This document shows, in pieces, positions 997 through 17,965 of a stretch of 17,965 nucleotides of DNA. Positions within the stretch are counted from its first letter, which is position 1; every line of letters begins with the position of its first letter. The notes below the pieces were generated by a model. It saw only the letters and a program-made list of their open reading frames with translations, did not search any database and was not told where the DNA came from. Both the position numbers and the translations under genes were made by a program. The stretch comes from Eledone cirrhosa (lineage: Eukaryota): assembly GCA_964016885.1 (NCBI GenBank), contig CAXHJY010000156.1, positions 1-17,965 on the forward strand. The letters are read 5' to 3'.

Positions 997-1076
997 AACG
1001 AAGGAAATGTGGTAAGGAACCAGGTGGACCATAACGCACCAAGGTAGTCAATACTTAGGGTAGTAGAGTGGGTAAT
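997..1076 (+). mobile_element. Unclassified TA-embedded element, copy C (lacks the terminal palindrome)
   Basis: AACGAAGGAAATGTGGTAAGGAACCAGGTGGACCATAACGCACC...GAGTGGGTAAT matches 5225-5304 and the reverse complement of 5635-5714; (TA)n on both sides. Confidence 0.85.
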
Positions 1077-1960
<884 letters not shown>

Positions 1961-3320: not shown

Positions 3321-3474
3321 TTATCCTGTGGCTCAAATCAGCCCTTGTGGCTAATAAATGAAATCTTTATGTTGTGGCTCAAATCAACCCTTGTAGCTAA
3401 TAAATGAAACCATTATGTTGTGGCTCAAATCAACCCTTGTAGCTAATACATGAAACCCTTATCTTGTGGTTCAA
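3321..3474 (+). repeat. 46-bp minisatellite, about 3.3 copies
   Basis: Unit TTATGTTGTGGCTCAAATCAACCCTTGTAGCTAATAAATGAAACCA starts at 3321, 3367, 3413 and 3459. Confidence 0.95.
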
Positions 3475-4460: not shown

Positions 4461-4643
4461 ATTGTTTCTACTTTTGGCACAAGGCCAGCAATTACCCAGT
4501 ACATTACTGGTACTTTATTTTATCGACCCCGTAAGGATGAAAGGCAAAGTTAACCTCGGCGGGATTTGAACTCAGACCGTAAAGGGACGTAACTATACTG
4601 AAAGCATGGCGTCCGACTCTCTACCAATACTGCCAATCCAGCG
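4461..4643 (-). mobile_element. tRNA-derived SINE, near full length, with TSD
   Basis: Reverse complement of the 429-617 family; direct repeat CGATTGTTCTAATAATAAT at 4444-4462 and 4642-4660, followed by (TAA)n to ~4690. Confidence 0.93.
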
Positions 4644-4691: not shown

Positions 4692-5015
4692 TATATATAT
4701 ATATATATACGTGTCCATACACACACACTGATACATGTATACATACATATATATATATATAAGTGGTTACACAACAGTTAGTTAGTTCACCATACCGAGA
4801 ACAATTGTTTCACCTTAGCGGATCTGAGGATATATTCTCATAATGAGAATTTGCTTCGAAATCACTAGACGTATCTGAGGAACTTGCAAATCCAGAGTCA
4901 GGTTCAATCCACAAACAGATCACACCTCGAGCTGTTCGCCGGAGAAACAATTGGAATACGTAAAAAATTGTGTTCCGATGCATCAATGATTTCTTCGTTT
5001 TCCATATATATATAT

Positions 5016-5207
5016 GGAACGGTGGATTGGCAGTATCGGTAGAGGGTCGGACGCCATGCTTTGACGCATAGAGTCACGGCCCTTTCCATTCTGAGTTCAA
5101 ATCCCGCCGAGGTTAACTTTGCCTTTCATCCTTACTGGGTCGATAAAATAAAGTACCAGTAATGTACTGGGTAATTGCTGGCCTTGTGCCAATAGTAGAA
5201 ACAATTA
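5016..5207 (+). mobile_element. tRNA-derived SINE, full length
   Basis: A-box, B-box, core and tail as in 429-617; short (TA)n on both sides. Confidence 0.93.
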
Positions 5208-5224
5208 TATATATATATATATAT

Positions 5225-5397
5225 AAGGAAGGAAGTGTGGTAAGGAACCAGGTGGACCATAACGCCCTAGAGTACTTGATACAATGGGTAGTAGAGTGGG
5301 TAATAGGAAAAAAGTCAGGACTCCGACAGCTATCTCGCAGTTCAGAGATAGCTGTCGAAACGGCCGGAGCTCAGCCGTCGGGATCCTGACTCTTTCC
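5225..5397 (+). mobile_element. Unclassified TA-embedded hairpin element, copy A
   Basis: 80-bp leader as at 997; perfect 13-bp stem CGACAGCTATCTC/GAGATAGCTGTCG (5324-5357); outer arms GGAAAAAAGTCAGGA / TCCTGACTCTTTCC. Confidence 0.85.
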
Positions 5398-5438
5398 ATA
5401 TACTGTACCGATTGTCTTGTTATTTCTGTTTACCTTTT

Positions 5439-5520
<82 letters not shown>

Positions 5521-5525
<5 letters not shown>

Positions 5526-5714
5526 AACGAGTAGGACCCCGACGGCTGATCTCAAGCCGTTTCGACGGCTAATTCTGTCCAGAATTAGCCGTCGAAACGG
5601 CTTGAGCTCAGCCGTCGGAGTCCTACTCGTTCCTATTACCCACTCTACTACCCTAAGTATTGAGTACTTTGGTGCGTTATGGTCCACCTGGTTCCTTACC
5701 ACAATTCCTTCGTT
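5521..5714 (-). mobile_element. Unclassified TA-embedded hairpin element, copy B (complete)
   Basis: Leader (reverse complement of 5637-5714) plus a 116-bp palindrome at 5521-5636 with 57-bp arms, 55/57 matches and a 2-nt centre; (TA)n on both sides. Confidence 0.9.
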
Positions 5715-5718
5715 ATAC

Positions 5719-5800
<82 letters not shown>

Positions 5801-6253: not shown

Positions 6254-7044
6254 TTCCTTCCCTCCTATTCCATGCCTGTATAAATATATCTTTGGGTGTG
6301 TATTCGCTTATCAGTTTTTTTTCGTTACGTGTATGATATATACAATATACAAAATATGCACATTTGGAATGCAATATGTCTTGAATGTATGATATAAATG
6401 TGTATTAAATGTAGATATTATGTATGCATGTTTGTATACTTGCAATTTTTGTCTGTATCTATGTTAATTAAGTATGTATATAAATATGGATGTACAAGAA
6501 CATTTATTACTTACATATGGTATGCTATCATTGAATAATCTATATTTGAAGAAAACATCTAGAGTCTCTATTACACAGTGGAAAGTATGTATGTGAAGAC
6601 GGTAATGAGTGTGTGTGTGTGTGTATGTATGTACCTGTGTATTTAAAATCTTCATGCGCTTTCTATCTTCTAGATAAGTCAATTTTATGTTGTTTGTTGA
6701 TAACGTTCTGATTGCGGTTACATTCACATTTTATTGCAGGTGAGAAGAACCATGGGAGAGATGCTGTGACTATCTCTGATTTATTAACTCCGGACGTACA
6801 ACTACAACGCATTCTCTTCGACTGACAATACATCTGTAACAAAGCGTTATTACAATATGCCTTGTCGAGGGATCTTTACTCCCAACCGATACAGAGAGCC
6901 ACCACCGTAACATATGGCGTATCTTTGGTAGGTCATTTACACCTGACGAAATTACTCCCTCTTTCAAAATTTGGCTACAGTTGAATTCTTTTTTACAGAT
7001 AGAAAAAGAGACAAATTGAAAGAAAAGAAGTCTCTGTCCTAGAA

Positions 7045-7355
7045 CTAGACAACATACTGCAATACCCTAGGGTTCAAGGGAGCCCAGATTTTTAATAAGA
7101 TGTTAAAATCATCTAATGGATCTACATGGTGTGCTTGTAGATGCTTTCAAGAGATATCTTGACATTCTACTGACCAAGATCCCGGAAGAATCCACAGCAC
7201 GAGGCGAAGTACAAATAAGAGCAACAGCAACAAACTCCCTTTTGCATCAATGGCCAACCAGGGAAGGCTGGCTATAAGAAGGGTAGCATCTGTGGCGGTG
7301 CCCCACCATGATCTCAGTCCCTCGGCTGGAACGCAAATAAATAAACAATAAAAGA
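7045..7355 (+). mobile_element. 5'-truncated, frameshifted LINE 3' end (CR1/L2-group-like ORF2 C-terminus plus 3' UTR)
   Basis: 7052-7111 reads TYCNTLGFKGAQIFNKMLKS; after a +1 shift, 7113-7277 reads LMDLHGVLVDAFKRYLDILLTKIPEESTARGEVQIRATATNSLLHQWPTREGWL*. This fits the GP.LFN.LP..LR...FK..LD..L..IPD.P...NSL pattern after the RT domain. A-rich tail AAATAAATAAACAATAAAA follows. Confidence 0.8.
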
Positions 7356-7675
7356 TACAATAATTGATCGAGAAGGAGAAGTGCAAGCCCAATCGAAGAG
7401 TCATATCATATTTCCAATATAGGCAATCGTTTATCAGAACTTGATCCTCACTAACACTTTCTTTAATTTTCTAAACTTACTTTACAACGAAGCGCATCTC
7501 TAACTAAGGTTTAATAACTTTAGATTCGTGACCCTTTCCTAGACTGTATTAAGACTAATTTCCTGACTATAATAGTATGGGTCACATTCGATATGTTGTT
7601 TGTATACAATGGTAGTTGTCTCCCTCATAGTATCTCCCTTTAAACATGTATATCTCAGCAGCCATTATGTTGTTA

Positions 7676-7852
7676 TGGCAGTATTGGTAGAGAGTCGGAC
7701 ACCATGCTTTGACGTATAGAGTTACTGCCATTGCCATTCTGAGTTCAAATCCCGCCAAGGTTAACTTTGCCTTTCATCCTTACGGGGTCGATAAAATAAA
7801 GTACCAGTAATGTACTGGGTATTTGCTGGCCTTGTGCCTAAAGTAGAAACAG
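7676..7852 (+). mobile_element. tRNA-derived SINE, slightly 5'-truncated, with TSD
   Basis: Family match starting at the A-box; 11-bp TSD TTATGTTGTTA at 7665-7675 and 7853-7863. Confidence 0.93.
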
Positions 7853-10944: not shown

Positions 10945-10949
<5 letters not shown>

Positions 10950-11200
10950 ATACTTTGGGAGGGTCATGTTGCCAATAAGAAACATACGCACCAGTCGATT
11001 TCACTCCGATTTATTATAAATTAAATTTATAAATTTAAGAATTTATAAATTTCCGGTTGGCTGGTTGGTTCCACAACCGGACGGTTGTTCATATATTATC
11101 AAAGTTCTTTCGTCACACATTCTGTGACCTCTTCAGTGACTGGGGATTCTTTTCTTTGTTTTGTGCCTCTTCTTTGTTCTGTCCTACGCCATCTTGTTTT

Positions 11201-11829: not shown

Positions 11830-12076
11830 TGAGGATGATGATGATGATGGAGATGGTCGTGGTGGTGATGATGATGGTGATGGTCGTGGTGGTGATGATG
11901 ATGGTGATGGTCGTGGTGGTGATGATGATGATGGTCGTGGTTGTGATGATGATGGTGGTGGTGGTGCTGATGATGATGATGGTGATGATGATGGTGGTGG
12001 TGATGATGATGGTGGTGGTGCTGATGGTGATGGTGGTGCTGATGATGGTGGTGATGATGATGGTGGTGCTGGTGCT

Positions 12077-12113
<37 letters not shown>

Positions 12114-12200
12114 ATGATGATGATGGTGATGATGATGATGGTGATGATGATGATGGTGGTGATGATGATGATGGTGATGATGATGATGATGGTGGTGATG
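11830..12200. repeat. (GAT/GGT/GCT)n trinucleotide low-complexity tract
   Basis: About 120 in-register GRT/GCT triplets, with repeated GATGGTCGTGGTGGTGATGATGATGGT units at the 5' end. Confidence 0.9.
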
Positions 12201-12264
12201 TTACTGCATTCTAGTTAAGGAATTCGAGGTTATGTTAGAAGTGAGGGGCATAGTAAGGCGAGAC

Positions 12265-12650
12265 GGTGGTGGTGGTGGTGGTGGTGGCAGTAGAGGCTGT
12301 GACGGGGTGATGGAGGAGGTGGTGGTGGTGGCAGTAGAGGCTGTGACGGGGTGATGGAGCAGGTGGTGGTGGTGGCAGTAGAGGCTGTGACGGGGTGATA
12401 GAGGATGGTGGTGGTGGTGGTGGCAGTAGAGGCTGTGACGGGGTGATGGAGGAGGTGGTGGTGGCAGTAGAGGCTGTGACGGGGTGATGGAGGAGGTGGT
12501 GGTGGTGGTGGCAGTAGAGGCTGTGACGGGGTGATGGAGGAGGTGGTGGTGGCAGTAGAGGCTGTGACGGGGTGATGGAGCAGGTGGTGGTGGTGGTGGC
12601 AGTAGAGGCTGTGACGGGGTGATGGAGGAGGTGGTGGTGGTGGAGGTGGG
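12265..12650 (+). repeat. G-rich minisatellite, 8 units of about 41-48 bp
   Basis: Constant GGCAGTAGAGGCTGTGACGGGGTGAT(G/A)GAG separated by variable (GGT)n; 8 occurrences counted. Confidence 0.95.
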
Positions 12651-14008: not shown

Positions 14009-14167
14009 TAATAATAATTGTTTCTACTTTTGGCACAAGGCCAGCAATTATTCCAGTGTATTACTGGTACTTTATTTTATCGACCCCGTAAGGATGAAAG
14101 GAAAAGTAAACCTCGGCGGGATTTGAACTCAGAATGGCAAGGACCGTAACTCTATGCGTCAAAGCAT
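14009..14167 (-). mobile_element. tRNA-derived SINE, 5'-truncated
   Basis: Tail, core and B-box present; A-box region missing; TAATAAT on both sides. Confidence 0.92.
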
Positions 14168-14179
14168 CTATAATAATGG

Positions 14180-14264
14180 TAATAATAATTGTTTCTACTT
14201 TAGGCACAAGGCCAGCAATTACCCAGTGCATTACTGGTACTTTATTTTATCGACCCCGTAAGGA
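14180..14264 (-). mobile_element. tRNA-derived SINE, 3' half only
   Basis: Reverse complement of TCCTTACGGGGTCGATAAAATAAAGTACCAG...GAAACAATTATT. Confidence 0.92.
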
Positions 14265-16077: not shown

Positions 16078-17536
<1,459 letters not shown>

Positions 17537-17883
17537 GGTGGCTGCCAACTCGTTTTCGAGTACGGCCACTACTTTATATCCATGTAGGAGAACCCCTACC
17601 GATACGCTGAACGAGTGTGACTTTTTAGTCTAACCAGCGACTTCAAAACTCTGGTACAAACACTACACTTGTGACAATTATTGACACATAGTGCTGGGCC
17701 CATGGTACCATGTGACGACAAATGCAGAGAGATCTCCAGATATAAAGCAATGCCTGTGCCGTGAAGCTTTTATAGTGAGCAAAGGCACTGCACAAAGCCA
17801 GTCCCACTCTCTTAACCAAGATGATATTTACCAAAAAGAAGAACAAGTCAACATCATTGGATATCATCAGGGTTGCAGGTGTT

Positions 17884-17965
17884 ATATCAGAGTTTTCCTT
17901 CTCCTAGAATTCTACCTTGACTAAGGCTAAGGGGTCATCTCTCCCGGTGATTTTGGATGGCCTAT
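17884..17965 (+). mobile_element. Possible RTE-clade LINE 5'-region fragment running off the window
   Basis: AGAGTTTTCCTTCTCCTAGA...CCT...AAGGCTAAGG resembles a motif I recall from RTE/RTE-X 5' UTRs; no ORF is visible within the window. Confidence 0.35.

Follow-up and report, generated by a model that had tools for sequence, protein, structure and literature searches.

Short (TA)n-embedded repeats with a mirrored arm in Eledone cirrhosa: probable 3' ends of a Penelope-like element family

Background

Insertions of Penelope-like elements (PLEs) have been described as 5'-truncated, often adjoining an inverted truncated copy, with a tail of 30-40 bp at one end, and (TA)n is the listed target of the Naiad and Hydra families, including those of Octopus (Craig 2021, PMC8557442). 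According to the same text, abundant PLE 3' ends are left 'unknown' by automated pipelines. Head-to-head repeats with palindromic joints have been found in PLE insertions, and self-priming was proposed (Arkhipova 2013, PMC3846280). In vitro, the protein of an anole PLE nicks AT-rich DNA on both strands and extends them, starting at two sites whose spacing equals the tail; the origin of PLE head-to-head repeats is stated there to be unresolved (Frangieh 2024, PMC11167929). Pairs of hammerheads on opposite strands have been reported near truncated PLEs (Cervera and de la Pena 2014, PMC4209133). In O. vulgaris the Penelope-like share is given as 6.83%, with 190 families (Bonar 2026, PMC13282606).

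Here we analyse a stretch of 17,965 nucleotides from Eledone cirrhosa (contig CAXHJY010000156.1), called the window below, in which a preliminary description had noted an unclassified TA-embedded element with a terminal palindrome. Its hairpin layout is one already described for Penelope-type elements, so that the family is mostly ordinary. We propose, with a probability of roughly 0.7, that the copies are short 3' ends of a PLE family and that their mirror arm was likely made at insertion.

Results

Three copies with one fixed end

The window holds three copies, and blastn found no fourth one in its 17,965 nt. Their parts are as follows.

5473..5523, no strand: (TA)n target tract beside copy B, from the sequence; further tracts flank 5225, 5714 and 997
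5524..5577, minus strand: inverted, tail-less arm of copy B; 55/57 against its mirror; outer end directly on (TA)n
5578..5579, no strand: joint between the arms of copy B; low depth in run X1; minority form in the family
5580..5633, plus strand: direct, tail-joined arm of copy B; has GTC, GAAA, a 5-bp hairpin and TC; depth in runs X1 and X15 continuous into the tail
5634..5714, plus strand: 81-nt extension of copy B, formerly called the leader; common to copies A, B and C; ends in GTT at (TA)n
5225..5305, minus strand: 81-nt tail of copy A; 85.2% identical to copy C over 81 nt
5306..5336, minus strand: tail-joined arm of copy A, lacking the 24-nt unit of GAAA plus hairpin (alignments)
5337..5344, no strand: 8-nt loop between the arms of copy A, from the fold
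5345..5397, plus strand: inverted, tail-less arm of copy A; aligns over its full length to the tail-less arm of copy B
997..1077, minus strand: copy C, tail alone; 96.3% identical to copy B over 81 nt

The three copies had been said to share a (TA)n-bordered end and a leader of about 80 bp, and this holds: the fixed end lies at 5225 in copy A, 5714 in copy B and 997 in copy C, and the shared block of 81 nt is 96.3% identical between B and C and 85.2% between A and C. Counted from this end the copies measure 81 nt (C), about 173 nt (A, 5225-5397) and 191-194 nt (B). Five of the six copy ends in the window lie on TA tracts, the exception being the arm end of copy A, which is adjoined by ATATA only and then by unrelated sequence. 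On the plus strand copy B reads (TA)n, inverted arm, joint, direct arm, 81-nt extension, (TA)n. An inverted truncated copy stands next to a tail-bearing one in two of the three window copies (A and B). In both, as in run reads, the tail is present at one end only, and the inverted repeats do not lie at both termini of the unit, 81 nt being placed outside one repeat. Copy C consists of the 81-nt block with no arm at all; its cut falls at the border between tail and arm, and its flanks are TA-rich on both sides. The constant end had been taken for the 5' end; the strand was likely reversed there, and the 'leader' is best read as a 3' tail, the sense strand being likewise a likely assignment.

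Palindrome and folding

Recomputation confirmed the palindrome of copy B at 5521-5636, with arms of 57 nt, 55/57 matches and a 2-nt centre; its fold reaches z = -19.5 (200 shuffles). Copy A does not form a palindrome of 116 bp. Its fold is a three-way junction (z -7.6), and the Y shape arises because its leader-side arm is without the 24-nt unit, which sits between two CGAC(G/A)GCT repeats. The motif GACGGCT/AGCCGTC is present twice per arm. Alignments show the inner stem of copy A paired, and an extra C/G in both of its outer arms, just as had been described. A hairpin in the 81-nt tail is not above chance (z -0.3 to -0.7), and as DNA the tail forms stems of 4 bp close to its end, plus an interrupted one deeper inside, a fold that shuffled sequences match. 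The preliminary description had made the 116-bp terminal palindrome a trait of the element. That part does not stand, for the form is found in one of the three window copies, A being Y-shaped and C armless, and the palindrome is not a fixed trait of the family. It is best read as an inverted truncated copy rather than as a conserved terminal hairpin.

The series GTC, GAAA, hairpin and TC in the direct arm of copy B resembles the second half of a hammerhead. A motif scan of the element did not find CUGANGA followed by a stem and GAAA, and a search of the element for an intact hammerhead was negative. Leaving pure TA runs aside, half-cores occur at six other sites, and that of copy A escaped the scan. 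We give the motif little weight because the first half is absent, half-cores lie elsewhere and the one in copy A was missed. The first half of a hammerhead would lie inward of the truncation.

Abundance and junctions in public sequencing runs

Words of copy B were found in 14 of 17 listed runs, from nine studies, with half or more of the words in three of them, one of which may itself be the source of the window; no RNA run was among the listed runs with such words. Four of the 17 runs were aligned to 5511-5724 at 80% likeness, and the counts leave out 10 of the 14 runs with copy B words and two of three added RAD runs. In organism A, 20,710 of 16,285,364 contigs of run X1 and 25,880 of 12,467,656 RAD reads of run X15 align to this interval; in organisms B and C three and two contigs do so, respectively. 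From these data we infer a family of thousands of copies or more, alignment counts and contig depth not being copy numbers.

The junctions of arm with (TA)n, of arm with tail and of tail with (TA)n have depth in both X1 and X15, and the joint of arm and tail is also present in records of organisms B and C. A variant tail end at 5703 likewise enters (TA)n (1,045 reads, 97 contigs). No listed record spans both arms, and pairing within a copy is seen in copies A and B only.

At the centre of the palindrome, X1 depth is low, with about 0.28-0.31 million for 5575-5579 and 0.23 million for 5572; most listed arm positions have about 0.7-3.1 million. Loose ends that continue into other sequence occur at 5569-5586 in all four aligned runs, and in organism B two contigs carry 127-130 nt of other sequence at the arm junction and agree with each other near it. 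The drop in X1 depth together with the loose ends in all four runs makes the centre of copy B one joint among many. Loose ends behind 5577 were not scored as longer inverted arms, as reads can map to either arm.

A dip of X15 at the centre was also considered as a sign of a variable interior and rejected: all three molecule-end peaks coincide with the three AATT sites and represent the library cut. Because the library was cut at AATT, X15 gives no copy number, and cuts inside the arms favour arm-bearing copies. In the same run, 1,212 reads with a loose end before 5586 share one different inward sequence, which could form a short stem of its own with the arm; these reads may belong to a subfamily with a native hairpin, or to a few amplified RAD loci.

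Mirrored variation between the arms

Covariation of the arms, named as a check in the preliminary description, was assessed on the best 40 of 117 variants. These comprise 12 in the tail-less arm and 15 in the tail-joined arm; the other 13, of which 11 fall in the block and 2 in the centre, were excluded from the test. Nine of the 12 listed tail-less-arm variants have the complementary change at the mirror position, and 20,000 random placements gave at best six. In X15 the frequencies of the nine pairs correlate with r = 0.98 (0.94 minus the most frequent pair); the nine were picked since both sides were listed, and six of the 15 tail-joined-arm variants have no listed mirror. Inserted bases are mirrored as well, with a C behind 5532 and a G behind 5624. 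At each of the two mismatches of copy B, the letter that restores pairing is carried by 92% of X15 reads. Both arms of copy A share five differences from copy B, namely four substitutions and one inserted base. As X15 depth on the TA flank amounts to 88-95% of that of the tail-less arm, most such reads are true block-free arms, despite the risk of cross-mapping.

Mirrored transitions fit copying, we infer, better than selection on an RNA stem. Selection or regeneration by copying had both been offered as the cause of the hairpin; regeneration of the arm by copying fits, and selection of an RNA hairpin is disfavoured, since G>A on one arm goes with C>T on the other at equal frequency, where an RNA stem would have tolerated one-sided G-U changes. 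Mirrored variants are not unique to the PLE reading, and TIR elements give rise to them too.

An A at 5619 is common to copies A and B, unmirrored, and is carried by at most 8% of X15 reads. This shared letter suggests that the arms were inherited as a unit, or local conversion. The two copies that share the minority letter lie about 300 nt apart, and local conversion, shared descent or chance could each account for it.

Coding capacity and database searches

The element had been described as having no ORF, which agrees with our searches: six stop-free frames (65-186 aa) that cover the locus match no Pfam family. No reverse transcriptase or GIY-YIG frame linked to the element was seen among these six local frames, which counts against the PLE reading. 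ARAGORN found no tRNA gene at the locus, and Rfam gave 0 matches in the window at gathering score; the 51 sub-threshold matches around the locus are all generic hairpins or TA runs. Exact probes had no match in prokaryote genomes, JGI metagenomes or viral contigs, an 18-mer in three viral contigs being taken as chance since the likeness ended at 21-28 nt. Six element probes were without match in the full-text literature, and a topic search likewise yielded no paper.

In the supplement of PMC8557442, as far as accessible, 17 short probes matched no published 3' end, the consensus ends of Naiad, Chlamys and Hydra included, and line breaks in that text may hide matches; the matches obtained lie inside unrelated sequence or are Naiad, Hydra and Chlamys motifs deliberately targeted or noted. 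Four probes found no match in the accessible supplement text of PMC13282606. The family may already be present in Dfam, Repbase or an O. vulgaris library.

Neighbouring features of the window

By eye, about seven copies or pieces of a SINE-like repeat of about 190 nt are present in the window, one of which adjoins the TA tract beside copy A.

429-612, 2762-2975, 4465-4640 (minus strand), 5017-5205: SINE-like repeat, approximate, by eye
7670-7850, 14010-14160 (minus strand), 14180-14262 (minus strand): SINE-like repeat, approximate, by eye

We take this repeat to resemble octopus tRNA-derived SINEs; ARAGORN found no tRNA in it, and five of its probes were unmatched in the full-text literature. 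A broken reading frame lies at about 6750-7260 on the plus strand, its last part presumably resembling the C-terminus of a CR1/L2-type LINE. A minisatellite with units of 41-51 nt and variable GGT runs occupies 12255-12650 and is preceded by a GAT/GGT triplet tract at about 11830-12200, and at 3325-3465 a unit of about 40 nt stands in three to four tandem copies (by eye).

Other segments also border TA tracts. On the minus strand, a segment at 10945-11200 ends at (TA)n and contains, at about 11095-11140, a complete minimal hammerhead-like motif (CTGAAGA, a 6-bp stem and GAAA) with no Rfam hammerhead match; the segment probably represents the 3' end of another PLE family. A TA-flanked segment of 243 nt at 4762-5004 has CTGAGGA, a 7-bp hairpin and GAAA in order; it failed the motif scan and may be a decayed hammerhead-bearing end. 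A GC-richer segment at 17536-17965 begins abruptly at (TA)n and has a short GC-rich hairpin close to this border; it is possibly another TA-targeting element.

Discussion

Likeness to the 3' ends of PLEs

The element probably works like a PLE 3' end. We read it so because its layout matches published insertions in 5' truncation, the adjacent inverted truncated copy and the one-sided tail, and because Naiad and Hydra families, Octopus ones included, are listed as inserting into (TA)n. Of the two candidates originally put forward, Penelope-derived or Helitron/Helentron-like, the former fits the evidence, and the end rules of the latter mostly fail. Membership of the PLEs is not proven, because no coding parent was found and the tail, at 81 nt, has twice the length published (30-40, given as 'often' for PLEs in PMC8557442).

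Among the closest families described in PMC8557442, the Naiad elements Naiad_Obim and Naiad_Ovul share with this family the (TA)n target, 5' truncation, the inverted truncated copy and the one-sided tail, as well as abundant short 3' ends and the lack of a canonical hammerhead near the 3' end. A similar stem-GTCGAAAC-hairpin stands in Octopus Naiads at a distance of about 110 nt from (TA)n, compared by eye with 124 nt here; beyond GTCGAAAC no sequence match to their published ends was found. Cephalopod Naiads are called old remnants in that text, whereas the arms of copy B differ at only 2 of 57 positions.

The Hydra clade (Hydra-1_Obim and others) has the (TA)n target in almost all families, as here. 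The cut of the Hydra ribozyme, derived from PMC8557442, falls about 35-115 nt from the 3' end, and GUC lies at 98 nt here; a short stretch of the tail resembles the end of Hydra-2_Amil at 11 of 12 letters (by eye). Hydra elements have a complete hammerhead, in contrast to the second half alone in the window copies, and the published end of Hydra-1_Obim is a different sequence.

Penelope insertions of Adineta vaga (PMC3846280) are similar in their head-to-head inverted pLTRs, palindromes at the joint, a tail on one of the two and solo pLTRs; they differ in being low-copy, with pLTRs of 180-220 bp, tails of 31 bp and readable target duplications.

How the copies may have arisen

The following steps are modelled on the in vitro behaviour of the anole PLE. 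A protein of the PLE type, with reverse transcriptase and GIY-YIG nickase, would nick (TA)n on both strands, and cDNA would be primed at two fixed sites of the element RNA 81 nt apart, giving one cDNA with tail and one without. Both would stop early and join head-to-head, plausibly via the repeated GACGGCT/AGCCGTC motif; alternatively, the joining step could be fold-back self-priming of one cDNA. Arms drawn from one source element, either full-length or a short non-coding derivative, would share the variants of that source, and later point changes would be one-sided. Copy B would then represent two cDNAs of equal reach. Copy A would be a short and a longer cDNA joined at the same motif, or the result of a later slip between repeats, and copy C a single cDNA halted at the tail border, whose TA can pair with the target.

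We hold a more specific version for doubtful, namely that the family is a non-coding mini-PLE of about 200 nt whose hairpin is rebuilt at each jump by two reverse transcription starts 81 nt apart, with the hammerhead relic as the joint. Such an element would have colonised thousands of TA tracts, and its two cDNAs would anneal through the stems of the decayed hammerhead, which would have no cutting role.

Alternative explanations

It is improbable that the copies are a non-autonomous Helentron-type element (HINE/HLE2), in which the two inverted repeats would lie at the 5' end and inset from the 3' end, and internal deletion would shorten the copies. HINE and DINE-1 elements (PMC4067079, PMC11417382) do resemble this family in being non-coding and of high copy number with asymmetric inverted repeats, the 3' repeat of HINEs lying 38-60 bp from the end; the tail here ends in TT, and many joints that skip the centre are listed in the runs. 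Those elements have repeats of 12-17 bp, a 3' stem-loop and TT targets, whereas the arms here measure 54-57 bp, the flanks of copy B are (TA)n, TT is found at one end only, the arm end being without it, and the tail lacks a stem of 5-10 bp (z -0.5 and -0.7 as DNA). The TC start and the 3' hairpin with CTRR end of Helitrons (HLE1) are absent on either strand of copy B. Helitrons insert between A and T, a position that a (TA)n tract does not reveal.

A similarly small chance is left to a TA-inserting miniature DNA transposon of the TIR or foldback type, represented by the arms, which would have landed at the edge of a separate TA-embedded 81-nt repeat, the pair then spreading jointly. TA bounds both arms of copy B, copy C has only the tail, with its cut at the arm border, and mirrored variants and centre deletions are expected in TIR families; the summed arm depth in X1 is also about equal to the tail depth and not double it, contig depth not being copy number. 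This account has to face the joint of arm and tail in both arm-bearing window copies, in X1, in X15 and in organisms B and C, and how a cut-and-paste transposase would carry along 81 nt that lie outside one TIR is not evident.

It is very improbable that the copies belong to a short RNA-mobilised element, its hairpin preserved by selection and passed on as a unit. The arms of copy A still pair through their five changes, and the letter at 5619 common to A and B would give a G-U pair on one strand; the centre and arm length are variable, copy C is armless, mirrored transitions have equal frequencies, the majority letters pair exactly and no Rfam family is reached at gathering score.

Least probable of those weighed is a non-autonomous DIRS-like (tyrosine recombinase) element. 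DIRS-like families have unequal inverted repeats with a one-sided extension, and inverted repeats with an extension on one side are what is seen here; blastn found in the window copies no internal stretch complementary to the outer ends, and truncating reverse transcription better explains the solo tail and the variable joint.

Twin priming of a LINE was rejected because its product has an inverted 5' part but no second copy of the 3' end. Non-LTR retrozymes (bioRxiv 2026.07.22.740005) are short non-coding PLE derivatives, as these copies probably are; they form head-to-tail tandems with complete type I hammerheads, whereas the units here are head-to-head or solo, and this identity was rejected.

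Implications

If the mini-PLE version were true, the family would preserve, across a whole genome, a natural archive of the way in which PLE inverted repeats arise, and it would be a major source of near-perfect double-stranded RNA. Read as PLE 3' ends, the copies add one more abundant PLE-like end where PLEs are plentiful. As the insertions are shorter than 200 nt and abundant, both arms and the joint are readable in single reads, so that the family could distinguish self-priming by fold-back from a pair of priming events whose products anneal, and could show whether PLE tails reach twice the accepted length.
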